Assembly: GCA_017505525.1 (NCBI GenBank) | Contig: JAFVPB010000015.1 | Coordinates: 26 to 64,025 of the forward strand | Source: Clostridia bacterium | GTDB lineage: Bacteria; Bacillota; Clostridia; UMGS1883 | Reading direction: 5' to 3' | DNA length: 64,000 nucleotides | Part shown: piece by piece, positions 7,748 through 26,429 of the stretch | Layout: every line of letters starts with the position of its first letter | Position numbering within the stretch: position 1 is the stretch's first letter | Position numbers and translations under genes: made by a program | Notes under the pieces: generated by a model | Database searches by the model: none | Seen by the model: the letters and a program-made list of their open reading frames with translations, nothing else | What the model was told of the DNA's origin: nothing

Positions 7748-7775
7748 CCCAATGCAGAATGCATTGGGTTTATCG
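7748..7775 (+). terminator. rho-independent terminator after rpsT
   Basis: A CCCAATGCagaaTGCATTGGG hairpin followed by TTTAT. Confidence 0.6.
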
Positions 7776-7784
7776 TCGTTGAAC

Positions 7785-7833
7785 GGGAATGTTTAAAAAG
7801 TTCAGACCGCAAAAAGTTTAAATCGCAAAAAGT
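7785..7833 (-). repeat. terminal fragment of the interspersed element (end module only)
   Basis: 'GGGAATGTTTAAAaagTTCAGAcCGCAAAAAG' closely matches the reverse-complemented element end 'GGGGATGTTTAAAttcTCCAGAaCGCAAAAAGGC'. It is followed by a second partial repeat, 'TTTAAATCGCAAAAAGTTCAGG'. Confidence 0.45.
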
Positions 7834-8565
7834 TCAGGCTCTCGCTTTATTTACTATCTTGTAAATAATCCAGTAGAGTGAGTTTTGTTCCATCTTTGCT
7901 TTTGTAAGAGCCTCAAGGGCTCTTTTTTCGTCTGTTATTTCAATTTTTATTTTGGGATTATTCATTAAATCCCATAAAATATCGTTTGGCGTTTCTATAG
8001 TTTTTTGGGGTTCTTCCCTTAAAAGCGGCAGCAAATTCTTCTCGAAAGCCTTTCTGGTGTTCCCGCCAAAGAAATTCACACCGGGGCAGGTTTTAAGAGA
8101 AGTTTTTTTATTATAGTCTCCTATAAATCCCGCCGAAGAATACCATGCGTGATAGACAACTGCGCTTTCAGGTACAAGCTTGCACTTTTTTAAAAGCGCT
8201 TTCATCACACTCACTATTGTATTTTTTTGTTCTGTGGGCATAGTTTCAGCATCAAAATTTCCAAGGCATTCAATACATATTGCCCCCGTGTTGGCATTTG
8301 TTATGCCTGCAGGCTTAATATTTAAATCACGCCCCGAAACAACTGTTCCATCGGGAAATATCGTTAAATTCTGCGCAATGTCGCTGAATCCTCTTGATTT
8401 CACATGGTAATTTTTCATTCCCTGCTGAAGTGCCATATGATTATTTACTGAAAATGATTTTATATTTGGACTGTATGTGTGATGAAGCTGAATTTTTGTA
8501 ATTTTCCTTTTAAAATTAAAAGCATCTATGTATTTTACATATTCTTCTGCCGTATATTTTTTCAT
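7834..8565 (-). CDS. phage endolysin, N-acetylmuramoyl-L-alanine amidase (amidase_2/PGRP-type)
   Basis: Amidase_2 features ('IQLHHTYSP', 'ICIECLGNF', 'VYHAWY') sitting next to a holin gene. Confidence 0.7.
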   Translation of the reverse strand: MKKYTAEEYVKYIDAFNFKRKITKIQLHHTYSPNIKSFSVNNHMALQQGMKNYHVKSRGFSDIAQNLTIFPDGTVVSGRDLNIKPAGITNANTGAICIECLGNFDAETMPTEQKNTIVSVMKALLKKCKLVPESAVVYHAWYSSAGFIGDYNKKTSLKTCPGVNFFGGNTRKAFEKNLLPLLREEPQKTIETPNDILWDLMNNPKIKIEITDEKRALEALTKAKMEQNSLYWIIYKIVNKARA

Positions 8566-8575
8566 AATAAAACCT

Positions 8576-9007
8576 CTATTCTTTTTTATCCTTTATTGCT
8601 TCTAAGGCTTTTTTTATAAATTCGGGATATGGAACTCCCATTTTAGTTGTGTTTTCAACGATACTTAACCCCTCGTTCCCTATGAAAAACAGCATAGCTG
8701 TGTTGCGTATATACTCCGACCCCATAACGCTATCAATGCATACGCACAATGCTATCAGGCATAAAACACAAATCTTCTTTACTATTCCCTTAAATCCTGC
8801 ACGTGAGCTTGCCTTTCCGCTTTTGGTTTTATTGCTTTTGTGAAAAACAAATGCAAGCAAAAATCCCGTTATGTAGTCAATTACCATACAAACCAAAAGT
8901 GTTGCTAAAAGCTTGTCCCATCCGCCGAGCAAGGCTGATACAAATCCGCCAATTCCCGAAACTATACCAAGCAAAATATTTTTAACGTAATACGCTTTCA
9001 CATTCAT
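8576..9007 (-). CDS. phage holin (holin_4_1-like)
   Basis: 143 aa with three TM helices, the 'GGWDKLLATLLVCMVIDYITG' region, and a charged C-terminus. It lies immediately upstream of the endolysin. Confidence 0.7.
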   Translation of the reverse strand: MNVKAYYVKNILLGIVSGIGGFVSALLGGWDKLLATLLVCMVIDYITGFLLAFVFHKSNKTKSGKASSRAGFKGIVKKICVLCLIALCVCIDSVMGSEYIRNTAMLFFIGNEGLSIVENTTKMGVPYPEFIKKALEAIKDKKE

Positions 9008-9296
9008 CCTCCTTTACTGCATAAATTTCTCTTGGGTTTTCCTTAAAGTCATAGTTTGCAAGCGTTGTTACAAGCCCTGTTGTATAGCCTTTTATAATTT
9101 TGCCTGTTTCGTTGCCGTATTCATCGGTTGCAATTTCATCACGGCTCTTCTCGTGCAGTTTATAACCATCGCAAGGAAGTATTGTGTAGTTGACTACATC
9201 TCCGTTCTCATTTACACGTTCCTGCATAATGGTGTTTTCTATTTTTGTTTCAATATCTCTGTACATAAAATACCTCCTACGCCAAATTCCAACCAA
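8982..9296 (-). CDS. hypothetical phage protein
   Basis: The ORF sits inside the phage late operon. No recognisable motifs were found. Confidence 0.35.
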   Translation of the reverse strand: MVGIWRRRYFMYRDIETKIENTIMQERVNENGDVVNYTILPCDGYKLHEKSRDEIATDEYGNETGKIIKGYTTGLVTTLANYDFKENPREIYAVKEDECESVLR

Positions 9297-10098
9297 TATC
9301 GGTTATATAGGCATCGTATGTTTTGTTGTTAAATTCAGGTATCGCCCCTAAGTTAGCCATTGCTGTTTTGCAAGTATCTTTAAGAGTGAGAGTATATACA
9401 CCTGCGTTTTCTGTTCCTGAATAATCCTTCAAATGTAAAATTATATCCTTAACACTTTCCACACTTAACGGACTATAAGAAATTGATAAATTTCTTCCTA
9501 TCTCACCCTCAAACCTTACATTTTTCAATGAACTGCAAACACTGAATGCAGATTCAAAATGAGTATCAGCGTTTGAACGAATTAGCTCAATAGTGTGTAA
9601 TTTACCACACCTTGCCCAAGTATAATAGTAGTAGCCTGCGGGCATCCCTACATCTTCAAATTCTTCTAACGCAGTGCAATAATGACATATTTGTCGGTTT
9701 CCCAGTTGATGAGTGGTTTGACTAATATTAAATTTATCTGTATTTATATTTGAGAAATCAAAATATTTTTTCTCAACCTTTTTAATATAGCTGTTGTAAT
9801 GAAACATATAGGCATACGATGGAATGTTGTCAGCAGTAGCACAACCACGAGGCACTATCTTACGATTAGGTCTTATACATTCATCTGTAAAACCAATAAA
9901 AGCATAGGCATACCAATTTCTTTCGCCATTCTGTGTAAATTTATCCCAAAAGGCATTCTGCTCGTCTGTTCTGCCTTTATCATAAACCTCATTTATTCCA
10001 TTTGCCATACCATCAAGGCTCAGTGCCTCTGTGCCGCCTGTTTTAGAGCGGATATTATCCGCAATAACCGTCATTTTTTCATTAAATTTCATTACCAT
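9277..10098 (-). CDS. phage protein with BspA-type leucine-rich repeat
   Basis: One BspA-like LRR, 'FESAFSVCSSLKNVRFEGEI'. It lies between the tail-fibre and lysis genes. Confidence 0.4.
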   Translation of the reverse strand: MVMKFNEKMTVIADNIRSKTGGTEALSLDGMANGINEVYDKGRTDEQNAFWDKFTQNGERNWYAYAFIGFTDECIRPNRKIVPRGCATADNIPSYAYMFHYNSYIKKVEKKYFDFSNINTDKFNISQTTHQLGNRQICHYCTALEEFEDVGMPAGYYYYTWARCGKLHTIELIRSNADTHFESAFSVCSSLKNVRFEGEIGRNLSISYSPLSVESVKDIILHLKDYSGTENAGVYTLTLKDTCKTAMANLGAIPEFNNKTYDAYITDIGWNLA

Positions 10099-11120
10099 TC
10101 ACCTCCTGAAATAGCATTTTCAACGTAGCACTTTACTTCCTCTATCTCCTGAGTTGTAAAATAGTCCACCCCTTTTATAGGGGCATCTCCCTTAACTTTT
10201 CCCACATTGAATGATGAAAGATTTTCTCCGAGGTTTAAAATCAACTCGCCGTTTTCATTAAGACTCACCCCGGGAGGATTCTCTTCGTCGGGATAGTGCA
10301 CCCATAAATCGCCGTTTTCATCCACCGAGAAAGAATAAAATCCGTTTACGGGCACAATTGCACCACCTAAACCCTGCTCGCCTCTTTCTCCCTTATCTCC
10401 TTTTTCGCCCTTATCACCTTTTTCACCCTGGATGCCTTGCTCTCCCTGTATGCCCTGAATGCCCTGTTCGCCTTTTTCACCTTTATCGCCTTTTGAAGCA
10501 ATCATAAGCCAGTAGTTTTCATTCTCTGGCGAAACTCCTTTGCATTCTTTTATACAAACAAAGCATCTTCCTTTGTAAACTGCTTTATTGTTTTTTTCGT
10601 AGAAATACTCTTCATCGTATTCATCCCAAACGTTCATTGAATCAGAAAGCTTTTTTATTTCTTCATTTGCATCTGCAAGCTTTTTTGAAACCTTTGGCAT
10701 AATTTCCTCTATTTCCTGCTGAAGCTGAAGCGTTTGGCTTGGAGTTGGCTCGCAAATATTTAAGCCCCCTTCGCTTTCACTTACAAAAAGAGTATCACGC
10801 ACACTTTTCAGAATTTTTGTTGGAGCGGCACTGTAGTATCCCTCCACAGTAAAAGAACACCATCCCGTTTCCTTTGTTGCTTCGGGAGGAATTTTTGTTT
10901 CATATATAAGGTTGTTCTCTTGGGCATTTGGTTTAAGAACAACACTTACCGCATTTTCGCCCTTAGCATCGCGCCATATAATTCTTTTGCCAAAGCCAAG
11001 CCAGCTCTCATCAAAAGTTATTTCTACATTTTGTGAATTCCCACTGCCTGCCGCACCTGCATTCTTGTTATTTTTTTCAACAAACTGCCCATTTATTTTT
11101 ATTTTTATGGTGTTATTCAT
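10092..11120 (-). CDS. collagen-like repeat tail fibre protein
   Basis: About 17 consecutive G-X-Y triplets ('GDKGEKGEQGIQGIQGEQGIQGEKGDKGEKGDKGERGEQG') flanked by non-collagenous domains. A 'caggagg' RBS precedes the start. Confidence 0.7.
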   Translation of the reverse strand: MNNTIKIKINGQFVEKNNKNAGAAGSGNSQNVEITFDESWLGFGKRIIWRDAKGENAVSVVLKPNAQENNLIYETKIPPEATKETGWCSFTVEGYYSAAPTKILKSVRDTLFVSESEGGLNICEPTPSQTLQLQQEIEEIMPKVSKKLADANEEIKKLSDSMNVWDEYDEEYFYEKNNKAVYKGRCFVCIKECKGVSPENENYWLMIASKGDKGEKGEQGIQGIQGEQGIQGEKGDKGEKGDKGERGEQGLGGAIVPVNGFYSFSVDENGDLWVHYPDEENPPGVSLNENGELILNLGENLSSFNVGKVKGDAPIKGVDYFTTQEIEEVKCYVENAISGGEW

Positions 11121-11132
11121 CTTGTCCTCCTG

Positions 11133-11166
11133 TAAAATTTTAAAAAAATCCCCGTGATAAATTTAT
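11133..11166 (-). terminator. rho-independent terminator of nfnAB
   Basis: A CCCCGTGATAAatttaTCACGGGG hairpin followed by T-rich sequence on the minus strand. Confidence 0.6.
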
Positions 11167-11188
11167 CACGGGGATTTGATAATTTATT

Positions 11189-12586
11189 TTAATTATTCTG
11201 TTTTTTGATATAGTCGTCAATCGCTTTTGCTGCTTTCTTTCCTGCGCCCATTGCAAGAATAACTGTTGCTGCGCCTGTTACGGCATCTCCGCCTGCATAA
11301 ACGCCCTCGCGGCTGGTCTGCCCAAATTCTCCGTCGGTTACAATACAACCGCGCTTGTTCGTTTCGAGACCGGGAGTGGTTTTTCTTATTAAAGGATTGG
11401 GACTTGTGCCTATCGACATTATCACCGTATCAGCTTCTAGCACGAATTCGCTTCCCTCTATCTCGCAGGCTTTTCGTCTTCCACTTTCATCAACTTCGCC
11501 AAGCTCCATAGAAATGCAACGCATAGCACATACATCGCCGTTATCATCACCAAGAATTTCCACAGGGTTTGTAAGCGTTTTAAAGATAATTCCCTCTTCA
11601 ATCGCGTGCTCAACTTCCTCTTTTCTTGCGGGGAGCTCGTCCATAGAACGGCGGTATACAATATAAACCTCGTCCGCGCCGAGACGAAGAGCACTTCTTG
11701 CGGCATCCATCGCCACGTTTCCACCGCCTACCACACAAACCTTTTTGCCCTTTTTAATAGGTGTTTTCGAATTGGGCAGATACGCCTTCATAAGGTTAAT
11801 TCTTGTTAAATATTCATTGGCACTGTAAACACCTTTAAGTGCTTCACCCTTAATATTCATAAACCTTGGAAGTCCTGCACCGCTTGCAATGTAAACCGCC
11901 TCAAATCCGTTTTCAAAAAGCTCGTCTACGGTTATGATTTTTCCAATAACCATATTGGTCATAATATTTACGCCCATTTTCTTAAGCTTTTCTATTTCGC
12001 TGTTTACTATATCCTTTGGAAGACGGAATTCAGGAATTCCGTAAACCAGCACGCCACCTGCAGTATGAAGTGCTTCAAAAACTGTTACCTCGTATCCGAG
12101 ACGTGCAAGATCACCTGCCGCGCTTAATCCCGATGGGCCGCTTCCTATTATTGCAACCTTGTGTGAATTCGATTCTATCTTTTCTGTTTCATTTCCACTA
12201 TGCTCTCTGTGATAATCGGCTACAAATCTTTCAAGTCTACCTATAGCTACACTTTCACCTTTAATTCCTCTCACACAAACACTTTCACACTGAGTTTCCT
12301 GAGGGCAAACTCTTCCGCAAACTGCGGGAAGCGCACTCGAACGGGAAATGATTTCATAAGCGCCCTCCATATCTTCGTTTGCAACCCTTTCAATAAACTC
12401 AGGAATATCAATTCTTACAGGGCACATTGAAGTACATGGCTTATTCTTACAATTCAGGCAACGCCTTGCCTCTTCTACTGCCATCTCGAAGCTGTAGCCC
12501 TCACTGACTTCTTTAAAATTGCTTTTTCTGACACTTGCATCCTGCACAGGCATAGGGCATCTTTTTGGATTCATATTTCTTTCCAT
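11189..12586 (-). CDS. nfnB: NADH-dependent reduced ferredoxin:NADP+ oxidoreductase subunit B (glutamate synthase small-chain-like, SudA/GltD family)
   Basis: Two [4Fe-4S] cysteine clusters near the N-terminus ('CLNCKNKPC', 'CPVRIDIPEF', 'CGRVCPQETQCES') and FAD/NAD Rossmann motifs ('VAIIGSGPSGL', 'VCVVGGGNVAMD'). The start is trimmed to the ATG at 12586, which follows a GGGGG RBS and leaves a 1-nt gap to the nfnA stop. Confidence 0.85.
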   Translation of the reverse strand: MERNMNPKRCPMPVQDASVRKSNFKEVSEGYSFEMAVEEARRCLNCKNKPCTSMCPVRIDIPEFIERVANEDMEGAYEIISRSSALPAVCGRVCPQETQCESVCVRGIKGESVAIGRLERFVADYHREHSGNETEKIESNSHKVAIIGSGPSGLSAAGDLARLGYEVTVFEALHTAGGVLVYGIPEFRLPKDIVNSEIEKLKKMGVNIMTNMVIGKIITVDELFENGFEAVYIASGAGLPRFMNIKGEALKGVYSANEYLTRINLMKAYLPNSKTPIKKGKKVCVVGGGNVAMDAARSALRLGADEVYIVYRRSMDELPARKEEVEHAIEEGIIFKTLTNPVEILGDDNGDVCAMRCISMELGEVDESGRRKACEIEGSEFVLEADTVIMSIGTSPNPLIRKTTPGLETNKRGCIVTDGEFGQTSREGVYAGGDAVTGAATVILAMGAGKKAAKAIDDYIKKQNN

Positions 12587-12587
12587 A

Positions 12588-13430
12588 TTACTGTGCCCCC
12601 TTTTTAAGAAGATTGCAGTTTTCTTCACGCTTCATATTTTCCGCTCTTTTATACATTGTGCCACGGCTGATAGCTTCATCGAAATCCACAAGATGTCCGT
12701 CGAAATCAGGTCCGTCAACGCAGGCAAACTTAGTTTCTCCACCAACCGTAAGGCGGCAGCCTCCGCACATTCCTGTCCCGTCAATCATTATTGGATTCAT
12801 CGATACAGTTGTTTTAATATTATATTTTTTTGTAACAGCACAAACAAACTTCATCATCATAAGAGGGCCTATTGCAAACACTTCATCATATTTATTACCC
12901 TCACAAATCAGCTTTTCAAGAGCCTCGGTAACAAGTCCTTTTTCTCCGTAGCTTCCATCGTCTGTCATAATTTTAAATGTTTGGCTTACGTTTTTAAATT
13001 CCTCTTCTAAAATTACAAGGTCTTTGTTTCTGAATCCCGCAACAGTGTGAACAGTACATCCGTTTTCATATAGTTTTTTTGCAACGGGGAAAGCTATCGC
13101 CGAGCCTACTCCACCGCCTACAACACAAACCTTTTTCAGATTGTCAAGCTTTGTGGGCGAGCCAAGAGGCCCCACAAAATCGCAGATGCTTTCTCCCTTC
13201 CCCAAAGAATTAAGCTCCATCGTTGCCTGCCCGATAACCTGAAAAATTATAGTTACGGTTCCGTTCACCTTATCACTGTCAGATATTGTAAGCGGCACAC
13301 GCTCTCCATCGGGCGTAGCACGAAATATTATAAACTGCCCCGGCTGTGCTTTTTTAGCTATAAGCGGTGCGCTTACCACTATTTTTGTAACACTGGGGTT
13401 AAGTGAAGTTTTTTCAATAATTTCAAACAT
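12588..13430 (-). CDS. nfnA: ferredoxin-NADP+ reductase subunit A (PyrK-like FAD/[2Fe-2S] subunit, SudB family)
   Basis: A PyrK-like fold with 'VCVVGGGVGSA' and a C-terminal 2Fe-2S motif 'CGGCRLTVGGETKFACVDGP'. It is tightly coupled to nfnB. Confidence 0.85.
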   Translation of the reverse strand: MFEIIEKTSLNPSVTKIVVSAPLIAKKAQPGQFIIFRATPDGERVPLTISDSDKVNGTVTIIFQVIGQATMELNSLGKGESICDFVGPLGSPTKLDNLKKVCVVGGGVGSAIAFPVAKKLYENGCTVHTVAGFRNKDLVILEEEFKNVSQTFKIMTDDGSYGEKGLVTEALEKLICEGNKYDEVFAIGPLMMMKFVCAVTKKYNIKTTVSMNPIMIDGTGMCGGCRLTVGGETKFACVDGPDFDGHLVDFDEAISRGTMYKRAENMKREENCNLLKKGAQ

Positions 13431-13532
13431 AAGTTTCTGTCCTTTCGAGTATAAACCTACTCTACATTATACAAAAAACCTCGCCTTAACGCAAGTGGTA
13501 TTTTTAATTTGAAAAGACAACTTTCTTCCTCT

Positions 13533-14717
13533 TTAGTCCTTAACACGTAAATTGGGTGAAAGATTTAAGATTTTGGCACTTTCAGAATCAAGATATCCAA
13601 GCGTTTTCCACTTATCAAGTGCTATTTTAATTTTATCGAGTTTTTCTTTATACTCACGGTCTTTTTGAGAATCTTCCTCGTCTTTAAGTATTTTCTTCAG
13701 TGCCAAATCATAATCACTAAGATATTCTGCCTTTTCGTTTTCAAATTTATCAAGCGAAAGATTATACTCTCTGTCTTCCACTTCCTTTTTGCGTTCTGTT
13801 TCACTTTTATATCGTTCGTTCTCAAGCTCTTTCTCGCTTTTGTATCTTTCATTTTCGAGCTCTTTTTCACTTACGTATCTTTCTTCTTCGATTTCTCTTT
13901 CCTTCCTGTATTTTTCGTCTTCCAGCGAATCAATAAACTTTTTATAATCAAATTCACGGTCTTTTTCAAAGCTCTCTACTCTGTCGAGATATTTTTCATA
14001 TTCGTTTTCTGAAAGAGTATTAAGTGCTTCAAGTTCTTTAAAGTCATTGCTTACAGAATCAAGATACATATCATAGTTCAAAGAGTAAAGCTCGGGAATA
14101 ATATCGGCAACCTTTGAATTATAGTAATCTGCCGCACTGAGTGCCGCACCAGCAGCATAGCTGCTTACGTTGCCGCCCGTGTTTACGGAAAGCTTACCCA
14201 AAATGTCCTCCATACTGCGCTCTCCCTCACGAAGATAGGCTTCTTTATAATATTTATAAATATCGTCCTCAAAGGGATTATACGAAAATTCTTTCCTCTT
14301 TAATATCTTATTTAAGAGGTTGTTTATATCTTTTGAGTAGCTGTTTTTATATTCTTCTCTTTTTCCGCTTGTTCTGAAATCGTCTGCACCCATTATATAT
14401 TTTACTGCCTCATCATACACATCGTCGTAAGCGTAATGTATAAGGCCTTCGGTACCGCTTGCTTTTTTCACTCGCTTTTTAAGAGTTTTTGAAACCGTAT
14501 CTCTTGATGCACCGCTGTTCATCTGCTTTTTCAGCACAACACTGTAGTCGGTATCATCAAGCCAGCCTGAGTACCTGTTTGTTTTTTCATAATCAAGGCC
14601 TTCACTGTCGATTTTTTCGTTACGTGTTTTTTCAAGCTTTGCCGCCGTAACATAGTCGCCTTTTTTTACCGCCTCATTAATTTGTTCTTGATAATCGGTA
14701 TCTTTATTATAGCTCAT
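13533..14717 (-). CDS. hypothetical phage structural protein, D/E/K/Y-rich with tandem repeats
   Basis: Low-complexity charged protein with repeated '...ERYKSEKELEN...' units. It sits in the phage late operon. Confidence 0.4.
   Translation of the reverse strand: MSYNKDTDYQEQINEAVKKGDYVTAAKLEKTRNEKIDSEGLDYEKTNRYSGWLDDTDYSVVLKKQMNSGASRDTVSKTLKKRVKKASGTEGLIHYAYDDVYDEAVKYIMGADDFRTSGKREEYKNSYSKDINNLLNKILKRKEFSYNPFEDDIYKYYKEAYLREGERSMEDILGKLSVNTGGNVSSYAAGAALSAADYYNSKVADIIPELYSLNYDMYLDSVSNDFKELEALNTLSENEYEKYLDRVESFEKDREFDYKKFIDSLEDEKYRKEREIEEERYVSEKELENERYKSEKELENERYKSETERKKEVEDREYNLSLDKFENEKAEYLSDYDLALKKILKDEEDSQKDREYKEKLDKIKIALDKWKTLGYLDSESAKILNLSPNLRVKD
13793..13893 (-). repeat. imperfect ~33-bp tandem repeat (x3) inside CDS 13533-14717
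   Basis: Three successive ~33-nt units encode the repeated ERYKSEKELEN-like peptide. Confidence 0.5.
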
Positions 14718-14892
14718 TTTCTCCCCCCTCGTAAATTCTGGTTTTACTTGTGTTTATTTCTATGATATTTGAACTGTCGAGATGCGTAAGTATATACTTC
14801 AGCTCTTCTTCGTTCGCTCTCAGGTAATTTTCTATTACCCTTATTTTTTCTTCGGTGCTTTTATCCTGTAAATCTGAAAGTGAATGAAACAT
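14707..14892 (-). CDS. hypothetical small phage protein
   Basis: The likely start is the ATG (MFHSLSDLQ) after an 'agaggag' RBS. Confidence 0.3.
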   Translation of the reverse strand: MFHSLSDLQDKSTEEKIRVIENYLRANEEELKYILTHLDSSNIIEINTSKTRIYEGGENEL

Positions 14893-14905
14893 TTTTTCTC
14901 CTCTT

Positions 14906-16677: not shown

Positions 16678-16685
16678 TTTCTCCT

Positions 16686-18135: not shown

Positions 18136-18147
18136 AAAATCAACTCC

Positions 18148-18411: not shown

Positions 18412-18566
18412 TTTTTACATCCTTTCCTGTTTTTACTTTCCCTTAGTTTTTTTGCAGGGGCGGACACCCTCACATTTCCGCAAAATACAGATCCCACGGG
18501 CGGATGTAGGCATCCGCCCCTACAATTAATAATTAAATCAGTTTTTACTGAAAAATATTTTTAAAG

Positions 18567-18830: not shown

Positions 18831-18832
18831 CC

Positions 18833-20179
18833 TTACCCAAATGTGCTTGCTGTTTCTACCCTTACCATGTATGGTTCAACAAGTCTAACCGTTGCTTTTG
18901 TAGCCTTCCAGCCTGCTGTTGCACGCTGATTGAGCGGGTCAGCAGTTCCTGCTGAGCCAAGCTGCTTGATTATATGTGTGAGGCCACCGCCCACAATTTC
19001 TGTTGTGCCATAAGCATTTTCACCGAAAATAAGTGTTGAATAAACATCTCTGCCCTTGTATCCTGCTTCACCGGGGTAAATAACCATTCCTGCTGAAATT
19101 GTATTTTTGGGTGCCTTTGCAAGATAAAGAGCCTTTTTATCTGCATCGATACCTGAAATTTCAAGCACTTCGGCATCACTTTCAGAATAGATAATCTGAA
19201 TTTTTCCGCCTGCAAGTCGCTCTGCATCTTCCAGAGTAATTTCTTCCTTAATTTTTAATTCAAATGTTGATGATGTTCCGCAGCCCTCTGCAAGTGTTGG
19301 GTTGCTATCGAGAACACTGTAGGAAGAAGCTGTAAGTTCACGCGACTGCGCACAAAGATCTTCTGCATGGAAAACCTTCGCTTCACTTGATTCCACAAAG
19401 CGAACATTTTCAATCTTACCGATTTCGCCCTGATAAATACCCTCGGGATCGGAATATGTTTTAACGTTAATCCACTTGGGATCACTCATAAGGTCGTATG
19501 CTGTATCAGGGTGAATAATACCCACATAGCTGCCATCGATAGTTTCGGCACTCATCTTCTTAAGATAGCGCACTGCCTTTCTGACAGCGTCGACCGTAAG
19601 ATAGTGATTTCCGCTTTCTTCTCCTCCGTTTAAAAGTCCTCTTTCATCAACCTGACCTTCGCTGTACTGCACATTTGTACCGCCTGAAAGCACCTCACGG
19701 GTGATTGTATCAAGAGTTCTTCCCGCCTGACCACCAAGAAGCTTTGTAGCCTGTACAAGATTGTTGTCAACTGCAGTAAGCATAAGCATATCTGAAAGCT
19801 CAATAAATCCACCATACTGCTTAACATCTGCAGAAACAACGCCCATATCAAGCTTCTGTCCTGATGGGGTAACGCCCTCTGCAAGAGGTGTTGTCATTTT
19901 GGGAAGCGGGTCGTACTTTCTGAATTCTATTGTCTTACCGTTTCCCTTCGGAATAGGGCACTTCTGTCCAAACTGGTCATGGACAAGTTTAGGCTCTGCC
20001 ATGTCAATAAGATAATCCGAGTAATATGTTCTCATTTCCGCACTTAATCCACCGTTTTCACCGTAAGGAGTGAATGCGCCTGTTGTATTATTAGCAATAC
20101 CTGCCGTTGTGTTTACAGTGTCGCCTGCAGCAAAAAGCTGCAAGTCAATAATTCTTTCTGTCTGTTTCAAATTTTTCAT
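18833..20179 (-). CDS. phage major capsid protein
   Basis: 448 aa in the canonical position downstream of portal and scaffold. The N-terminus 'IIDLQLFAAGD' resembles the L27/Prp cleavage motif. Confidence 0.7.
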   Translation of the reverse strand: MKNLKQTERIIDLQLFAAGDTVNTTAGIANNTTGAFTPYGENGGLSAEMRTYYSDYLIDMAEPKLVHDQFGQKCPIPKGNGKTIEFRKYDPLPKMTTPLAEGVTPSGQKLDMGVVSADVKQYGGFIELSDMLMLTAVDNNLVQATKLLGGQAGRTLDTITREVLSGGTNVQYSEGQVDERGLLNGGEESGNHYLTVDAVRKAVRYLKKMSAETIDGSYVGIIHPDTAYDLMSDPKWINVKTYSDPEGIYQGEIGKIENVRFVESSEAKVFHAEDLCAQSRELTASSYSVLDSNPTLAEGCGTSSTFELKIKEEITLEDAERLAGGKIQIIYSESDAEVLEISGIDADKKALYLAKAPKNTISAGMVIYPGEAGYKGRDVYSTLIFGENAYGTTEIVGGGLTHIIKQLGSAGTADPLNQRATAGWKATKATVRLVEPYMVRVETASTFG

Positions 20180-20197
20180 CCTTTCCTTTTACATTTA

Positions 20198-21028
20198 TCA
20201 GAAGCTTATTTTTTCGCCTCTTGCCGCACGTTTTGCAATCTCTTTGCGGTCTTTTTTGCTAAGCCTTGAAATATTATTTTCGAAAATCATTCCGCTTGTA
20301 GAGCGCGAGCCGTTTTCAATGGGGCGCACTCCCTTAGATCTGATTGAATCCACAATTTTCTTCTCAGCGTTTTTTGCATTCTTTTCAAGAAGCGTATCCA
20401 TATTTGTAACTTCGTAGGCATGCTTTACGCTTACTCCCACCCTGATAAGGCGTACAAATTCAGGATTTTTAAGCTGCTCTTTAAAATCGAAATCGCTGTA
20501 TTCCTTTTTTGTTTCTTCAACCTCAGCGCGAAGCTTTTCTGCTCTGGCCTTCGACTTTTCGTCTCTTTCGCTGTTCTCTCTCATCTTCTTAAGATAAGCG
20601 TTCTCTGCAATCAGTCTCCTGATAATGTCTTCGTATTTGTTTTCATTGTTGTTTTTGGTGTTTTCCATCTCGCCTGTTATCTCCTTTTCAAGCTTTTGTG
20701 CATTGTTATCATCAATGTTGTACTTTTTCATAAGCAAGTTTATGATATGTTCGTTTTTGTCGAGAGTTTCTTTCAACTTTTTCACCTCCTTGAATCTGCG
20801 GTCGATAATTTTTTGCACTCTTTGAGCAAATTGATTTTTAAATTTGCCGCTTATAAGCTTTTCAAACTCCGCATTTTTTTCTTTTTCGCTTTCGGCGTCA
20901 AAGCCTTCTTTTTCTTCGCCCGTATGCAGTTTGCCTGTTTCTGCAGTTTTTTCGGCATCTATACCTTCCCTTTGCTGCGCGCTTTGCTCGGGGATTGCAT
21001 GCTTTTGTTCTTTTTTCTTCATTGTCAT
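20198..21028 (-). CDS. phage scaffolding protein
   Basis: Highly charged, alpha-helical, coiled-coil-like 276-aa protein lying between the portal/Prp genes and the capsid gene. Confidence 0.55.
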   Translation of the reverse strand: MTMKKKEQKHAIPEQSAQQREGIDAEKTAETGKLHTGEEKEGFDAESEKEKNAEFEKLISGKFKNQFAQRVQKIIDRRFKEVKKLKETLDKNEHIINLLMKKYNIDDNNAQKLEKEITGEMENTKNNNENKYEDIIRRLIAENAYLKKMRENSERDEKSKARAEKLRAEVEETKKEYSDFDFKEQLKNPEFVRLIRVGVSVKHAYEVTNMDTLLEKNAKNAEKKIVDSIRSKGVRPIENGSRSTSGMIFENNISRLSKKDRKEIAKRAARGEKISF

Positions 21029-21339
21029 CTTTTCCTCTCAGTTTTAACTATCTTAATGTTTTCGGGAAATTGTCTTGCAAGCATCGTGAATCCTTCAAGC
21101 GCCATTTTATATGCTCCTCGGCATTCACGCCCTCCTGAAAAGCTGATTTCTCCAAGCCCTTTCTGGGTATTTGTTTCAAGCGAAGTAACAAGGGCATCCT
21201 TTTCCGCTGCTGCCACTAAGGAATAGTATAAAATACTCACAGCACTGCAAAGAATATCTTCTCCCTTTGAATACATAGCGTGCCCTTTTATATTTACCTT
21301 AAAATTATTTGCCCTTTTAACTGCCTGAATTTCTATCAT
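21025..21339 (-). CDS. Prp-like cysteine protease (ribosomal-processing protease family, DUF464), phage-encoded
   Basis: 'KGHAMYSKGEDILCSAVSIL' matches the Prp His/Cys catalytic dyad region 'GHAGY..G.DIVCAAVS'. It is 104 aa, the typical Prp size. Confidence 0.65.
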   Translation of the reverse strand: MIEIQAVKRANNFKVNIKGHAMYSKGEDILCSAVSILYYSLVAAAEKDALVTSLETNTQKGLGEISFSGGRECRGAYKMALEGFTMLARQFPENIKIVKTERKR

Positions 21340-22961
21340 ATTGCTTCCTCTCTTTCGGCTATCTGTATGTCTCGTATCTTTGCTTCTATGCCCGCTTTGC
21401 CCTCAAAATCCATAAGCTCAAGAGCGCAAAGTGCCTGTTCTTTATATTCAGGATTAAAAAAACCAAGACCAAAAAGCTCCTTTGCCATTTCGTTTTGCGA
21501 TAGCCTGCTGTATGGACTTTTCTTTTGAGCTTTCACACTGATATCAAAAACAGGTTTTCTGAAATATTCATCAGATTCTCCCTGCCCCTTAAGTTTTTCA
21601 TTACTGTAATCTGAAAACGTGTATTCACCTGAACTGTCTGCAATTCTGAAAGAGCGAAGCTCATCGTAAAACTGACGGATAAGCTCTATACAAAGGTAAT
21701 TTATCTTTGAAAATGCCCTGTAGGTAGATTTAAGCATATCTCTGCTTGTTTTACTTCCTGCCTCCTGAAGTGCAGCAATTGCAGATGCTGCCGTTACTCC
21801 GCCCTGGGTTGTTCCGCGTGAAACATCATTGTTCGAGCTTGTTTCCTTAAGTTCTTCAATTTTCATTTGAAGAATACTTATGCAAGATTGCGGCACCTGT
21901 GAAATCTGAATTTGGCGCAGTCTTTCTTCGTTTATATCACCCTCAACGTGAACAATCGGTTTTCTCCAATCGAGAAATTCCCCTTCGTTTATTCCTGCAC
22001 TCACCTTTGCAAAATACCTCGGTTTGGCACACATTATTGCGTTTTCAAGTATCGCCTGATTAAGCTTATCTATATACATCTGCGGATTTTTCGTTACTGC
22101 AATGAATCCAAATCCCGTGGGCGTACCCTCCTCGGGAAAAAGGGTATCGAAAATTATTGGGTATTCCCCATGGTCGTACCAGCCTTTTTCCTCGTATTCT
22201 TTATGATTTTCCGATGCAAATAAAACAGTATCTCCCACAAACTTGCAGTAATGAAGATTAACTCTGCCATTCTTTTTCACTTTATAGTACCAGTCCACAA
22301 TAGGGATTTTGTCTGCTATGTCCACATTATCATCGTATATGTACTGTTTAACATCAATTGTGCCTCCGTCCAACTTTCCGCGGAGCACCGGATATTCTTT
22401 TTCAAGCACATCTCCATCACACAAATCCACAATAAACAGATTACGGCTTTTCTGAATATCAGTAACACCCGGCTCCCAGAAAATATTTAGTAAATCAAGC
22501 TTTTTAATCTGTATATCACCAAGACCATTTTCAAGCTCACTGTTCCAGAAAACTCCCATAGCACTCGTTCCGTGCTTAAGCTTGTACCACCAGCAATCGG
22601 AATAAATATCCTCGTAATTGTTGTGCTCAAGAATGCACGGAAGAATACCCGACAGCCGCTTTGCTTCCTCGTAATCGTTTTTTTCCCTTGGAAGAATACT
22701 TGCCTCAGGGAAATTATCCATGGCATCGGCGTGCTTATTGATAAGCGAATTAAAAAGCCACGCACTGACGGCTTCTCCCTGCCCTGAATCTTTACGCGAG
22801 GAGTCCATTTCCCTATGGCGAAGTTTCCACCACTGTTCGTCCTCAACTATTCTCTCTTCGAGGCTTGTTTTGGCTTCTTTATATTTCTTAAGCTTTATTG
22901 CCGCCTCTTTAACTTCTTCTTTTCCTATTTTTTTATGGAAAACACTTTCTTTCTGCTTCAC
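21336..22961 (-). CDS. phage portal protein
   Basis: 541 aa between the terminase and the scaffold/capsid genes, which is the canonical gene order. Confidence 0.65.
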   Translation of the reverse strand: MKQKESVFHKKIGKEEVKEAAIKLKKYKEAKTSLEERIVEDEQWWKLRHREMDSSRKDSGQGEAVSAWLFNSLINKHADAMDNFPEASILPREKNDYEEAKRLSGILPCILEHNNYEDIYSDCWWYKLKHGTSAMGVFWNSELENGLGDIQIKKLDLLNIFWEPGVTDIQKSRNLFIVDLCDGDVLEKEYPVLRGKLDGGTIDVKQYIYDDNVDIADKIPIVDWYYKVKKNGRVNLHYCKFVGDTVLFASENHKEYEEKGWYDHGEYPIIFDTLFPEEGTPTGFGFIAVTKNPQMYIDKLNQAILENAIMCAKPRYFAKVSAGINEGEFLDWRKPIVHVEGDINEERLRQIQISQVPQSCISILQMKIEELKETSSNNDVSRGTTQGGVTAASAIAALQEAGSKTSRDMLKSTYRAFSKINYLCIELIRQFYDELRSFRIADSSGEYTFSDYSNEKLKGQGESDEYFRKPVFDISVKAQKKSPYSRLSQNEMAKELFGLGFFNPEYKEQALCALELMDFEGKAGIEAKIRDIQIAEREEAI

Positions 22962-23512
22962 CCTTTTTCCTCCTTAATATCGGGCAGTATTACAACTCCC
23001 GATTTTTCATTTTCTTCATCTTGTTTTTCTTTGTGCTTCGCCTCTTCAATTTGTAGTTTCCTTTCATCAAGAGGAGATACAATTCCATACATAACGCTTT
23101 TTATCTGTTCGAGCGACTCAAGCGCCTTTATTGCCGAGCCTAACGATTTCATATCAATTTTATTGAAAATCTGCTCTTCAGTAACAGTGGTGCCGTCGCT
23201 TCCCTTTTCTTTTATGAGATAGCGCCTGAACTGATCTTTGTCGCTAACGGCTTCATCAAGAATTCCCGAAAGCTTATTTGCAATATCAAGCTCCTTCGAG
23301 AGCTTTATTGCGGCAATATATGCGGCCTTATCGGCACACTTTTCCATCACGCTCCCAAGATATTCCTGCCTTGCCTCCTGCCATCTTTCTATCTGATAAT
23401 GACGATAAAGCGTTGCAGGATGTATCCCGTGTTTTTTACTGAGTGCCGCTGCCGATATATCGCTCGTTACAAATTCTGTTTTAAGAGCATTCCAATCATA
23501 TTTTTTCTTCAT
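22958..23512 (-). CDS. phage HTH-domain protein (possible small terminase subunit / packaging protein)
   Basis: N-terminal HTH 'ISAAALSKKHGIHPATLYRHYQ' and an acidic coiled-coil C-terminus. It lies between the large terminase and the portal. Confidence 0.4.
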   Translation of the reverse strand: MKKKYDWNALKTEFVTSDISAAALSKKHGIHPATLYRHYQIERWQEARQEYLGSVMEKCADKAAYIAAIKLSKELDIANKLSGILDEAVSDKDQFRRYLIKEKGSDGTTVTEEQIFNKIDMKSLGSAIKALESLEQIKSVMYGIVSPLDERKLQIEEAKHKEKQDEENEKSGVVILPDIKEEKG

Positions 23513-23523
23513 TTTCCCCTCCG

Positions 23524-24954
23524 CTACCTTATTATTGTTTTTCCGTATTGTGCGTATTCTTCTGTGTTAAGAGGGTTGTAGATTACCTGAGGTGCTTTTA
23601 CCGGTGGCGGATTGATGGGATTTTCCATTGCAACATATCTTACTTCGTCATAGATATGGTCTTCTGCCTGAGTATCGATATCTTCAACATCGCTTGCACT
23701 ATACACAAGGGCGGGAATAGTCCTTATAAAATTCTTGCAGGTAGAAAAAACATAAAGCATCGGAATCCCGCGTTCGTCAAACGCAAGACGGTTATGCAGC
23801 TGCATTTTTCCCGCCATTCGGGTGTTATCGGCTTTTTCAAAATAAACTCCTGCCCTCTCCATCATTGATGCCACACTCTCCCCACGGCTTTCATCAAAAA
23901 TTGATGGATCGGCAATTCCCGTAACGTAACGTCCTTTAAGATTAATGTCTTCTTTTTCCACCCTTGATATATTTTTTGCTATTTCCAATGGTTCCCATCG
24001 CACCCCCTCGTTGGGAGTTCCCGTGCAGCCGTAAAGTTCCCTTATCCGATACATTCTTCCATCGTGGTCAACCGCATACCAACCCACAGAAAACGGTCTT
24101 GAATAGCCAAAGTCAAATCCGCGGTATATTTTCCACGAAGCCGGTACCCGAAATGGCTCTATCACGTGAGTATCAATATGCGTTTTATAGCCATCGGGAT
24201 TATTCTTCCACTCTGTAAAAACCTGACCCGAAAAGCTGTCCCAGTCTCCGTATAAAAGAGCTTTTCTTTCATTTTCAGGAAGAGAAGCCAGCCTCGTTAT
24301 ATATTCAGGGTCGTTACGAAGAAGAATTTTATTATCAAACACGCTCGACGGCACAAATATTCTTGATCTCTGCCTTTTCTCGCTGTGTCCGTCGGGAAAT
24401 ATTATATTAATATCCTCGTAAATTGTTGTCATTGGCGGTGCAGGAGTTATAAATCTCTCCTTTACCCAGCCGTGGCCAACTCCTCCGGGGTTTGCCTGTG
24501 CCCTTATATAGCACCTTGTACCGGGACCGTTTGGTCTGTTACGACTGAAAAGATAACTGTATTCATCCCAGGTAAAGTGTGTAAGCTCGTCAAAATCTAT
24601 AAAGTCGTACCTTTTTCCCTGATAGTTTGTTCTGTCTTTGGTGTGTTGCATTGCCCCAAAATATATTTTTGCTCCGCTTTTAAATGTCCAACAGTGCTTT
24701 TGTTCATTATATTTCGCATCGGGAAATGCACTTTTATAAATCTCGCGACTCCTGTCGATTAATTCTGAAAGCTGAGGATACGTTTTTCTTAATATTAACC
24801 CCCTGTAGTGAGGGATATTAACCTGTCTTAAGGCTTCTGCTAATGCACAGTCGCTTTTTCCCCCACCGGCGGCGCCACCGTAAAGAGCCTCATTTTCAAA
24901 ACGCTCCATAAAAATCTTTTGCCTTGGCTGAGGCGTCCATATTACGTTTTTCAT
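23524..24954 (-). CDS. phage terminase large subunit
   Basis: Walker A 'LYGGAAGGGKSD' and a C-terminal nuclease region with conserved acidic residues. 476 aa. Confidence 0.85.
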   Translation of the reverse strand: MKNVIWTPQPRQKIFMERFENEALYGGAAGGGKSDCALAEALRQVNIPHYRGLILRKTYPQLSELIDRSREIYKSAFPDAKYNEQKHCWTFKSGAKIYFGAMQHTKDRTNYQGKRYDFIDFDELTHFTWDEYSYLFSRNRPNGPGTRCYIRAQANPGGVGHGWVKERFITPAPPMTTIYEDINIIFPDGHSEKRQRSRIFVPSSVFDNKILLRNDPEYITRLASLPENERKALLYGDWDSFSGQVFTEWKNNPDGYKTHIDTHVIEPFRVPASWKIYRGFDFGYSRPFSVGWYAVDHDGRMYRIRELYGCTGTPNEGVRWEPLEIAKNISRVEKEDINLKGRYVTGIADPSIFDESRGESVASMMERAGVYFEKADNTRMAGKMQLHNRLAFDERGIPMLYVFSTCKNFIRTIPALVYSASDVEDIDTQAEDHIYDEVRYVAMENPINPPPVKAPQVIYNPLNTEEYAQYGKTIIR

Positions 24955-25208
24955 ATGTTTTCACATATTTCCAGAATATAATTCCCCTCTTTGTCTTTTG
25001 TTGCAAAAAGCCTGTAATTCCCAAGAACATTCTTCACATCGTCTGCGCTTATCGTTCTTTTTCCTCCCTGTTCTTTTACAAGCATTACAATATTTGCCGC
25101 TGCACAGTCAAGAAGCTGGCGCATAGCCTCAATTTCTTCCCTTAGCTCCCCTATAAGCTTTTTATCGTCGGCGATTTTCTTATCACGCCTTTTAATTTCG
25201 TTATTCAT
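24951..25208 (-). CDS. hypothetical phage protein (coiled-coil)
   Basis: 85 aa, overlapping the terminase start. Confidence 0.3.
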   Translation of the reverse strand: MNNEIKRRDKKIADDKKLIGELREEIEAMRQLLDCAAANIVMLVKEQGGKRTISADDVKNVLGNYRLFATKDKEGNYILEICENI

Positions 25209-25404
25209 TTTTATTTCCTCCGCTGTAGTATTCTGTTAAAGATGAAGCCGCACTGCATTTTTTCCAGCAAGCATTGTTTGCGCAGTATTTTGTTGTATAC
25301 TCATTTTTTAATTCCCCGTTATGAAATCTTAATATACCACCCTCGCAATAAATTTTCTTTCTGCTCTCTCTTTTATAAAAAGGACAATCTATCACTTTTT
25401 TCAA
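25201..25404 (-). CDS. small Cys-rich phage protein
   Basis: 67 aa with cysteines at 'CPFYK...YCEGG...YCANNACWKKC'. Confidence 0.3.
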   Translation of the reverse strand: MKKVIDCPFYKRESRKKIYCEGGILRFHNGELKNEYTTKYCANNACWKKCSAASSLTEYYSGGNKNE

Positions 25405-25631
25405 TTTGTCTCACCTCGCAGTGCCATATACTTACCATAGGAAAGCCCCATTTTCTGTGCTTTTTGTTGTAGCAAGGTTAAATCCTCATATGGCAGTCTC
25501 ACACAGTCTATGTATGGAGCATATCCGCATTTTTTTCTTTTGTAGCAAAACTTACTACACGTTATTCTTCTTAACGAAAGCTCGGGGATACGTCTCCCGC
25601 AAACAACACAAAACTTAAAATCTCTTTCCAT
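25401..25631 (-). CDS. small zinc-ribbon protein, first gene of the leftward phage operon (Cro/early-regulator candidate)
   Basis: 'CVVCGRR...CSKFC' zinc ribbon plus a C-terminal helical region. It is divergent from the repressor gene. Confidence 0.3.
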   Translation of the reverse strand: MERDFKFCVVCGRRIPELSLRRITCSKFCYKRKKCGYAPYIDCVRLPYEDLTLLQQKAQKMGLSYGKYMALRGETN

Positions 25632-25817
25632 AATCTTTCCTTTCGCGTAAGTTAATTTTTGATGGTCTTACGTATTACGTAAGTGAGTATATATTACCAA
25701 ATATCAAAAGTCAATACTTTTTACGTAAGTTTTTTAATTTTTCTTGCATTTTAGGAAAGTTAGTGATATAATCCATTTGTAACACAGGTATTTTTGTAAC
25801 AGAATTGAGGATTAATT
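25632..25817. promoter_or_regulatory. divergent promoter/operator region of the phage repressor switch
   Basis: 17-bp palindrome CTTACGTA-T-TACGTAAG (25667-25683) plus half-sites ACGTAAGT at ~25645 and ~25719. A sigma-70-like promoter TTGCAT-17-TATAAT (25746-25774) faces the repressor gene. Confidence 0.55.
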
Positions 25818-26429
25818 ATGAAATTACAAGACAGAATTAAAGAACGTCGCCGCGCACTTGGGCTAACACTTCTTGAGGTAGCAGATGCTCTTGGCGTGAA
25901 AGAAGCCACCGTGCAAAGATACGAAAGCGGAGAAATAAAAAATTTAAAGCTTGAAACAATAAATTCACTTGCAAAGCTTTTCAGATGCTCTCCCTCTTAT
26001 CTTGTGGGGTGGGATTTTGAAGATTCACTTCCTCCCCAGGTCATGGAAATAAAAAACGAAGAAGTGCCTATGGTAGGCGAAATTGCCGCCGGAAAACCCA
26101 TTCTTGCAAATGAATTTGTTGAATACTATTCACCTCTTAAGGATACAGGTGCCGATTTCTGCCTTAAGGTTAAAGGCGATTCTATGATTGGCGCCGGAAT
26201 AACCGATGGTTGTACCGTTTTTATCCACAGGCAGGATATTGTGGAAGACGGTGAAATTGCCGCAGTGCTTATTGATGACGAAGCAACACTTAAAAGGGTG
26301 TATATATCTGAAGATTCTATAACTCTTGTTGCTGAAAATCCCAAATACAAGCCAATGATATATTCAGGCGAGAAATGTAGTGGCATTCGTATTCTGGGCA
26401 AAGCCGTTTCGTTTATGTCTGCCTTATAA
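25818..26429 (+). CDS. phage CI-like repressor (XRE-family HTH + S24 LexA-like peptidase domain)
   Basis: N-terminal HTH 'LGLTLLEVADALGVKEATVQRYESGE' and C-terminal S24 'KVKGDSMIGAGITDGCTVFIHRQ...LKRV' with a Ser/Lys dyad. Confidence 0.8.
   Translation: MKLQDRIKERRRALGLTLLEVADALGVKEATVQRYESGEIKNLKLETINSLAKLFRCSPSYLVGWDFEDSLPPQVMEIKNEEVPMVGEIAAGKPILANEFVEYYSPLKDTGADFCLKVKGDSMIGAGITDGCTVFIHRQDIVEDGEIAAVLIDDEATLKRVYISEDSITLVAENPKYKPMIYSGEKCSGIRILGKAVSFMSAL

Follow-up and report, generated by a model that had tools for sequence, protein, structure and literature searches.

FpGTA, the gene transfer agent (GTA) described in Faecalibacterium prausnitzii (Borodovich et al., Nat Commun 2026, PMC12946183), is the closest described counterpart of the locus reported here. 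It has no replication genes, and its 40-nm particles contain 8.4-8.9 kb of host DNA (PMC12946183). Operon I (10.5 kb) encodes a putative small terminase subunit (TerS), the large terminase subunit (TerL), a portal, a Prp-annotated protein, an N4-gp56 capsid, a nozzle and a 'TolA'-annotated protein that is highly charged and abundant in the virion; operon II (5.5 kb), which lies 125 kb from operon I, encodes fibres, a receptor-binding protein (RBP), a holin and an endolysin (PMC12946183). The proteins carry the accessions RCH50844-50853 and RCH48794-48800; RCH50852, 50851, 50850 and 50849 are TerL, portal, Prp and major capsid protein (MCP), and PDB 8eap was the cited template for the nozzle, RCH50846 (PMC12946183). 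Similar integrase-less clusters in Coprocola and Butyricicoccaceae have been presented in a murine-gut preprint. Here we analysed a stretch of 64,000 nucleotides from a Clostridia bacterium (contig JAFVPB010000015.1; hereafter the window, whose coordinates are used throughout), which carries a phage-like element at 7746-26429.

We concluded that the element is probably, though well short of certainly, a domesticated, SOS-inducible, podovirus-derived, GTA-like particle locus ('viriform') that is inherited vertically at a fixed chromosomal site. The observations that carry this conclusion are its gene content, the type of its tail, its conservation and fixation, and the purifying selection acting on it. 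GTAs are defined as resident phage-derived structural genes without integration or replication functions (Lang et al. 2012/viriforms), and such genes were found in the window and in its relatives. Vertical inheritance with purifying selection is seen as well, in a shared HD/GltX/PGA_cap neighbourhood and in ratios of nonsynonymous to synonymous substitution rates (dN/dS) of 0.04-0.24. Relatives were sought in one genome per GTDB species. Capsid-protein relatives occur in at least 510 of these species genomes, and locus architecture was inspected in the best 80, almost all of them uncultured Clostridia, Oscillospiraceae or 'Eubacteriales' gut metagenome-assembled genomes (MAGs). L numbers below denote these and further loci.

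Gene content and tail type of the element

The open reading frame (ORF) listing and profile searches place a repressor gene on the plus strand, facing a minus-strand array. From the high-coordinate end the order is repressor, three small ORFs, TerL, a helix-turn-helix (HTH) protein, P22-type portal, Prp, scaffold and capsid; after the capsid gene come six ORFs (two with collagen repeats), nfnA, nfnB, a collagen-like fibre, a protein resembling leucine-rich repeats (LRR), g94, holin and amidase. Housekeeping genes flank the element on both sides, with polA-coaE-SLT-apbE-rpsT at low coordinates (rpsT at 7459-7722) and rimP-nusA-ylxR-L7Ae-infB-rbfA-DHH-truB-ribF from 26546 onward. In Pfam, PHROGs and NCBIfam no ORF matched a family of integrases, replication proteins, tape measures, tubes or sheaths, and only regulatory, virion and lysis modules are present, which is less than a functional temperate prophage has. 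The window contains no tRNA and no match to an Rfam family. Direct repeats of att type around the element boundaries amounted to chance or promoter-like similarities; one of these, a 30-nt similarity between the rpsT promoter region (7392-7421) and the repressor promoter (25743-25772), reads CTTGCATTTTA...TA(C/T)AAT, is 73% identical and probably reflects that both are strong sigma-70 promoters rather than att sites. When 50,697 phage records were searched by megablast with the structural region, none matched, and relatives were found at the protein level only. An earlier note on this DNA had listed the same genes and coordinates, a 448-aa capsid included, had set the element directly between rpsT and rimP, and had noted the lack of a recombinase, replication proteins, a tape measure, a tube and a sheath; the searches and the annotation of adjacent genes agree with it on each count. 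It had also stated that its idea would fail with an integrase or replication module just outside the boundaries, and none was found in the window or in relatives. The packaging, head and tail features are as follows.

23524-24954, minus strand: TerL, 476 aa (Terminase_6N; phrog_979 3e-61)
22958-23512, minus strand: g184, 184 aa, HTH at the N-terminus and charged, helical C-terminal part (weak matches only)
21336-22961, minus strand: P22-like portal (P22_portal PF16510 1e-27; phrog_156 1e-80)
21025-21339, minus strand: Prp-type cysteine protease (PF04327 4e-12)
20198-21028, minus strand: scaffold-like protein, 276 aa (phrog_13908 2e-45)
18833-20179, minus strand: MCP of the N4-gp56 family, 448 aa (TIGR04387 305 bits, cut-off 60; phrog_1357 2e-81)
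18412-18832, minus strand: non-coding gap after the capsid gene, unusually long at 420 nt (67-600 nt in relatives)
18148-18411, minus strand: g87, an 87-aa virion-module protein (phrog_15239 4e-23)
17026-18135, minus strand: g369, a 369-aa collagen-repeat protein with DUF6273 (Pfam Collagen, DUF6273), fibre or appendage protein
16686-17036, minus strand: conserved 116-aa protein (phrog_12105 6e-26)
14906-16675, minus strand: g589, predicted podovirus tail nozzle, 589 aa, all-beta (AlphaFold2 model; phrog_511)
14707-14892, minus strand: g61, beside the nozzle gene
13533-14717, minus strand: g394, all-alpha in its AlphaFold2 model, with a helix of ~190 residues and an E/K/R-rich C-terminus

The tail type was recognised from g589. 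Its gene was listed as a 638-aa ORF, and gene callers and homologues indicate that it most likely begins at 16675, which gives 589 aa. An AlphaFold2 model built from 39 homologues reached a predicted local distance difference test (pLDDT) score of 89.7, and in a Foldseek search against the PDB its top 28 matches were podovirus tail nozzles, among them P22 gp10 (8u10, 9jg6 and 8eap; E 7e-15 to 3e-14), Sf6 gp8 and T7 gp12. A PDB sequence search with g589 returned nothing, and the nozzle was recognised via the structure model only. This modelled fold indicates that the element encodes a short podovirus-type tail. The remark in the earlier note that long-tail genes are missing stands for tape measure, tube and sheath, but not for tails as such, as a short one is predicted. 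Its proposal to look for podovirus tail components at 13533-18135 proved right, and among the ORFs where it had allowed for a tape measure or a tail tube the models give a nozzle and an all-helical protein.

That helical protein, g394 (pLDDT 85), gave non-significant coiled-coil or BAR-like matches only in a fold search against the PDB, and neither a tape-measure nor a needle function can be assigned to it. In the true phage relatives of ~41 kb described below, the gene for the g394 homologue follows the nozzle gene and precedes that of a giant polyvalent protein; because of this position, g394 is probably an internal or ejection protein, and so is g61. The 116-aa protein, whose gene adjoins the nozzle gene in relatives too, is a candidate adaptor or connector. 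The g369 protein evolves fast (35-41% identity across species) and in a PDB sequence search matched the upper fibre of 80alpha (6v8i) weakly, through its collagen stretch only; PDB searches with g369 and g273 returned collagen or insignificant matches only.

Among cultured phages, the closest by capsid protein are podoviruses, namely Bacillus megaterium Page/Pony (36%) and Paenibacillus API480, and the family of this protein is large (>8000 homologues). An inserted domain of ~100 aa (about residues 290-400 in the alignment) is poorly conserved and is present or absent among relatives, so that a long form of ~441 aa and a short form of ~341 aa exist with cores 80-85% identical. Both forms were found in otherwise identical element architectures, L088 having the short one. 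Near the N-terminus (residues 13-17) lies an LQxF motif, DLQLF|A in the window, in which Q14 and F16 are invariant in the alignment. LQxF|A was reported as the cleavage motif of Prp-type proteases in work on S. aureus L27 and phage 80alpha. Since the capsid carries this motif and Prp retains its GHA His and ILCSAVS Cys motifs, Prp is likely the maturation protease that removes an N-terminal capsid propeptide. The scaffold gene stands between the Prp/portal and capsid genes in all relatives, true phages included.

Upstream of the portal gene, g184 matched the terS family phrog_1206 weakly (E 3.5e-4, residues 2-48), and we regard it as an uncertain candidate for a small terminase or a DNA-binding packaging factor. 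Directly after the capsid gene, g87 is found in nearly all 80 related loci and is missing only where a contig ends at the capsid; it is possibly a head-tail connector. In the window the two genes are separated by the long gap, which carries GC-rich hairpins (for example 18510-18493) and a directly repeated 29-nt stretch (18566-18594 and 18809-18837) whose copies each resemble a stop codon, a ribosome-binding site and an ATG. The gap is possibly an attenuator or the remnant of a small insertion.

Chromosomal position, selection and the nested nfnAB operon

A tblastn comparison with all window proteins found the same ordered array, from repressor to holin, in about 17 species-level Clostridia genomes, and two further loci (L088 and L090) have the same ordered array with nfnAB. 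The repressor gene abuts PGA_cap, preceded by GltX and an HD-domain gene, in eight other species (L006, L008, L011, L012, L014, L015, L016 and L018); in L088 PGA_cap lies about 4 kb from the repressor. The same trio stands at 34751-38694 in the window, with only the rimP-ribF operon between it and the repressor, so that nine species or more carry the element in this neighbourhood of the chromosome. The genes rimP-nusA-infB-rbfA-truB-ribF (26546-34227 in the window) lie between repressor and PGA_cap in both the window and L090. The arrangement points to a local rearrangement that moved this core translation operon beside the element in the window lineage. Cross-species comparison of flanks covers the repressor side, as the fetched loci end near the amidase gene.

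Between the window and the array genomes, element genes gave identities of 82-85% for TerL, 71-78% for capsid and 65-72% for portal. The host flank genes gave 84-86% for GltX, 72-77% for HD and 60-70% for PGA_cap. For estimates of selection the window was compared with the sister genome L090, which has the same rimP flank and a capsid 92-93% identical. All 20 of the 20 phage-derived genes compared are intact, with dN/dS of 0.04-0.24 (0.05 for TerL, 0.056 for the repressor) at synonymous divergence (dS) of 0.35-1.6; the flanking nusA, rimP and ylxR gave dS of 0.49-0.74 and dN/dS of 0.04-0.14. Every gene compared is under strong purifying selection, and the values fit an element that is co-diverging with its host. 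The array in about 17 species, the shared neighbourhood and the purifying selection all support the proposal of the earlier note that this is a domesticated PBSX- or GTA-like locus.

Some modules vary among relatives. In L090 (17311-19384) a 610-aa collagen protein and a 75-aa ORF replace g342, g271 and g94 (8982-11120 in the window), L084 has an r1t-type holin instead of holin_4_1, and the repressors of L015 and L018 are only 42% identical to that of the window.

A host operon, nfnAB, is nested in the array ahead of the fibre and lysis genes.

12588-13430, minus strand: nfnA (NCBIfam PRK06222 1.5e-118)
11189-12586, minus strand: nfnB (gltA/PRK12778)
11146-11177, minus strand: strong intrinsic terminator after nfnAB, 12-bp GC-rich stem and T7
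10092-11120, minus strand: g342, collagen-like tail fibre (phrog_5073 tail fibre 1e-22; Collagen)
9277-10092, minus strand: g271, weak BspA-type LRR (LRR_5 below the Pfam cut-off)
8982-9266, minus strand: g94, within the distal adsorption module 8982-11120
8576-9001, minus strand: holin (Phage_holin_4_1 7.5e-39)
7834-8565, minus strand: N-acetylmuramoyl-L-alanine amidase (Amidase_2 4e-12)
7770-7746, minus strand: terminal terminator of the array, after the amidase gene

The operon has its own promoter, TTGCGT-17-(TG)TATAAT at about 13493-13465, which overlaps a weak hairpin and T-run after g394. From the terminator behind nfnAB it is ~12 nt to the Shine-Dalgarno sequence and 25 nt to the start codon of the first fibre gene. 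Because this spacing leaves no room for a separate promoter downstream of the terminator, the fibre-holin-amidase block must, to judge from the sequence, be reached by read-through. An equivalent hairpin stands 17-29 nt upstream of the g342 homologue in 10 of the 10 nfnAB-bearing loci examined, with stems that differ in sequence and still pair; loci lacking nfnAB also have a hairpin ahead of the g342 homologue, without the long T-run. The operon occupies the same slot in 12 related loci (10 array genomes plus L088 and L090). One derived clade is without it: in a tree of concatenated TerL, portal and capsid proteins the three loci that clearly lack nfnAB group together, and therefore the nested operon is ancestral for the wider group. 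The embedded operon had been read earlier as the mark of an old, fixed element, and its presence in the same slot in most array species bears this out.

Predicted control, proposed particle cycle and rival explanations

Expression of the array appears to be governed from a short region between the repressor gene and three small ORFs.

25818-26429, plus strand: CI/LexA-like repressor, XRE HTH and S24 autopeptidase, 203 aa (Pfam HTH_3, Peptidase_S24; phrog_4)
25632-25817, no strand: divergent control region, 186 bp (sequence, promoter scan and motif search)
25744-25772, plus strand: repressor promoter TTGCAT-17-TATAAT (promoter scan)
25714-25686, minus strand: late promoter TTGACT-17-TATACT (promoter scan)
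25667-25683, no strand: putative operator, the 17-bp palindrome CTTACGTAnTACGTAAG, directly downstream of the late -10 box
25722-25730 and 25645-25653, no strand: two putative operator half-sites (motif search)
24951-25631, minus strand: three small conserved ORFs, g76 (Cys-rich, zinc-ribbon-like), g67 and g85 (coiled coil)

The translated repressor retains an Ala-Gly pair for cleavage (EIAA|GKP) as well as the catalytic residues Ser (GDSM) and Lys (LKR). A divergent homologue is located 0.75-3.5 kb upstream of terL in 57 of the 70 related loci with TerL in view. The layout of promoters and operators is kept in three other species (L090, L084 and L088), and the palindrome and its half-sites may well act as repressor operators. 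The three small ORFs gave no family match in profile searches; they are conserved in about 15 species with dN/dS of 0.07-0.11 and are candidates for early regulators or an antiterminator.

From these features we propose the following cycle. The repressor would keep the locus silent by binding the CTTACGTAnTACGTAAG operators over the late promoter, as the conserved layout suggests. DNA damage would lead to RecA-stimulated self-cleavage at the Ala-Gly bond, for which the motifs are intact, and so to derepression in a few cells. Transcription would then proceed across the genes of the small regulators, TerL, portal, Prp, scaffold, capsid, connector, fibre, nozzle and ejection proteins, and RNA polymerase would read through the conserved hairpin terminators, which also insulate nfnAB, into the fibre, holin and amidase block. 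Such read-through would probably need an antiterminator encoded by the element, by analogy with lambda Q and with the Caulobacter GTA, for which antitermination has reportedly been found; antitermination under the control of the element would explain how a constitutively expressed nfnAB can sit upstream of lysis genes. Procapsids would assemble, Prp would cut the capsid propeptide at LQxF|A, and TerL would package DNA by headful. As the locus has no excision or replication functions, the DNA packaged would be chromosomal. Nozzle and fibres would complete a short tail, holin and amidase would lyse the cell, and the particles may deliver their DNA to other cells.

Several points weigh against a GTA-like locus. 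The host is known only as a MAG, and particle production and DNA transfer are predictions from sequence. Homology with FpGTA was judged from shared families, structure templates and gene order; two look-ups of homologue-cluster members returned no Faecalibacterium (FpGTA) accessions. The capsid shares 76% identity with its counterpart in a bona fide phage (L085), and capsid size may be phage-like and not reduced. The HTH of g184 resembles that of a sequence-specific TerS, and packaging could be pac-directed instead of random. The cross-species comparison of flanks is limited to the repressor side. Finally, fibre, holin and repressor modules have been swapped among relatives, which shows continuing exchange with phages. 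Such exchange is unusual for classical GTAs.

The main rival to a GTA-like role, in our judgement an unlikely one, is that the particle resembles PBSX in function and is kept for killing competitors or for altruistic lysis that releases public goods, DNA packaging being incidental and delivery unproductive. The order of repressor, terminase, head, tail, holin and amidase mirrors that of PBSX as generally known, rapid turnover of fibres and RBPs fits the targeting of strains, and the same possibility was raised for FpGTA (Borodovich et al., PMC12946183). PBSX, however, kills by a contractile tail, and no such apparatus is found here; moreover, TerL, the portal and the ejection-type proteins, which a killing-only particle would not need, are under strong purifying selection.

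Less probable still is a helper-dependent element, that is, a satellite or mobilisable defective phage that packages itself and relies on a co-resident phage or the host for excision and replication. Its compactness and its own capsid and packaging genes recall capsid-forming satellites, a comparison also drawn in the murine-gut preprint, and an HTH-bearing TerS candidate and the swapping of repressor, holin and fibre modules would suit such an element. Yet no integrase, excisionase, primase or Rep gene was found in the window or in relatives, nor are there att-like repeats or a tRNA; the neighbourhood is the same in ~9-10 species with dS similar to the flanks, and the nozzle, fibres and lysis genes are ones that the capsid-forming islands lack.

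We give very little weight to an intact temperate mini-podophage whose integration and replication system hides in the small unassigned ORFs. Three small ORFs and g184 are without assigned function, and modules are exchanged with phages; but the unassigned ORFs, of 67-184 aa, show nothing of a recombinase or replicase, the element stays in place and diverges together with its flanks, most species have a host operon nested in it that brings its own promoter and terminator, and the true phage relatives are ~41 kb long with many more genes. A functionless cryptic prophage remnant drifting toward loss, the degraded podovirus prophage that the earlier note had offered as an alternative, is effectively refuted even though integrase and replication modules are missing and host genes interrupt the element: every compared gene is intact at dN/dS of 0.04-0.24 over dS of about 0.4-1.6, similar to the flanks, so decay is excluded, about 17 species have kept the full array, and operators and leader hairpins are conserved, with hairpin stems of different sequence that still pair.

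The wider family and comparison with known systems

The GTA-like locus belongs to a wider family. Distant subfamilies, whose capsids are 56-60% identical, keep an order in which repressor, TerL, portal, Prp, scaffold and capsid are followed by g87, the nozzle being present in some and absent in others. Each subfamily has host neighbours of its own that recur: upstream these are an FGGY kinase in 14 loci, a sigma factor in 10 and RadC in about 9, and downstream Ffh, SpoVAD, PrfA and SerC/SerA are found; a VTC protein is another recurrent neighbour. Their flanks contain no recurrent integrase family, and tape-measure or tube families are absent. An ORF of ~500 aa beside the repressor of a distant subfamily was considered as a large serine recombinase and rejected, as Pfam identifies it as an FGGY sugar kinase. 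The fibre and lysis genes of these subfamilies must lie elsewhere, in a split architecture. In L087 (4347-13195) only the head module is present, with an HTH-only regulator without S24, TerL, portal, Prp, scaffold, capsid and four small ORFs; serC, serA and prfA follow directly, and no nozzle, fibre or lysis genes are nearby.

True phages also share the gene set. Podophages of ~41 kb from gut Clostridia (L085, L095 and L096) have the same order of TerL, P22-like portal, Prp, scaffold and N4-gp56 capsid, and their collagen fibre/DUF6273, nozzle and g394-like genes stand in the order of the element; Bacillus phage Page/Pony and Paenibacillus phage API480 are distant members of the same comparison. 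Unlike the element, which is chromosomally fixed, these phages encode a polyvalent protein of about 2800-4150 aa, given as 3275-4154 aa for the relatives of ~41 kb, and have roughly 25 kb of further genes. The polyvalent gene comes directly after the g394 homologue, and its product carries MuF_C, ART-PolyVal, SNF2/helicase and LPD38 domains (L085:13550-21320, L095:11389-21371 and L096:13495-21827; also in L010 and L036). Phages of this kind are plausible ancestors of the element. An abundant 608-aa nozzle homologue, examined as a possible FpGTA protein, was rejected in that role and belongs to the ~41-kb phage; its cluster of 4142 sequences indicates that the phage is very abundant in public metagenomes. 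A scan of IMG/VR gave mostly fragments of 5-12 kb, several with an end at the g394 boundary or no more than ~200 bp from it; among the closest entries, those of the close relatives L097, L099 and L101 stop ~45-210 bp from the end of the g394 homologue. Automated virus callers may cut at the nfnAB boundary and thereby miss the fibre and lysis block.

The architecture of the 80 closest among the at least 510 genomes with capsid relatives suggests a wide distribution of such loci in gut Clostridia and an ancient origin. We advance only tentatively a broader reading, in which hundreds of Clostridia species carry a large, so far unmapped family of fixed podovirus-derived loci, each subfamily anchored by its own host genes, with an SOS-cleavable repressor and Q-like antitermination that shelters nfnAB, and with g184 as a pac TerS that leads to lateral transduction. 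If g184 were pac-specific, packaging would start inside a non-excising locus and run outward. In place of a random GTA, the element would then be an engine dedicated to lateral transduction of the neighbouring translation and ribosome-biogenesis genes. If the circuit holds, a constitutively expressed nfnAB would sit safely between head genes and lethal lysis genes.

GTA-like packaging was recently reported as the commonest route by which bacterial DNA enters virus-like particles of the human gut, and the responsible genes have so far been pinned down only in Faecalibacterium. The kind of locus was described only in 2024-2026, and a contiguous layout with an explicit predicted regulatory circuit makes the present one a useful model. 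It is compact and contiguous, comes from a different, uncultured Clostridia lineage and would be easy to clone and dissect, with a recognisable regulator, a putative operator set and leader terminators at hand; it also yields hypotheses on how lysis-coupled particle production stays off. In metagenomes, a repressor beside TerL, the N4-gp56 capsid, Prp and nozzle genes, the lack of an integrase and a position anchored by host genes could serve as criteria that separate GTAs from 'defective prophages'.

Comparison with known systems sets the GTA-like locus apart from three of them. The RcGTA-type agents of Alphaproteobacteria and VSH-1 of Brachyspira resemble it in the purifying selection on their domesticated head, tail and lysis genes, in vertical inheritance without self-replication or integration and in multi-locus tendencies; they differ in their unrelated, HK97-type siphovirus-like families, in their host regulators CtrA/GafA and in phylum. 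Capsid-forming phage-inducible chromosomal islands (cf-PICIs) are likewise compact and encode their own capsid, portal and terminase. They have an integrase, a primase or Rep and att sites and lack tail and lysis genes, whereas the element shows the opposite pattern: no integrase or Rep, no att repeats or tRNA, and a nozzle, fibres, holin and amidase. PBSX is a fixed, SOS-inducible locus with a divergent XRE-type repressor, terminase, head, tail, holin and amidase genes, and it too has no integrase or replication genes. PBSX packages host DNA. Its tail is contractile and of myovirus type (sheath, tube, tape measure and baseplate), its head module is unrelated and its Xre is without the S24 domain of the repressor described here; the element has no contractile-tail families, a nozzle-type tail with fibres, and in g394 a protein without a tape-measure or tube fold match.

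FpGTA differs from the locus as follows. Its blocks lie ~125 kb apart, whereas those of the window are split by nfnAB only and abut in one clade; the putative TerS of FpGTA occupies the position held here by g85; no regulator has been described for FpGTA, while the window has a divergent CI-like S24 repressor with conserved operators, together with a separate scaffold gene, a capsid insertion domain and a different, uncultured host lineage. In other respects the two agree. Both capsids are of the N4-gp56 type (the window protein scores 305 bits with TIGR04387, and RCH50849.1 bears the same NCBI name), and in both the Prp gene lies between portal and capsid in the order TerL-portal-Prp-capsid. 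A nozzle is encoded downstream of the capsid gene, g589 matching 8eap at E 3e-14, and a highly charged helical protein, 'TolA'-annotated in FpGTA, is terminal. Fibre/RBP, holin and endolysin genes form a separate block, at 7834-11120 in the window and set off there by nfnAB and its terminator. Neither system has replication or integration genes, and both reside in Gram-positive gut anaerobes of the Clostridia.

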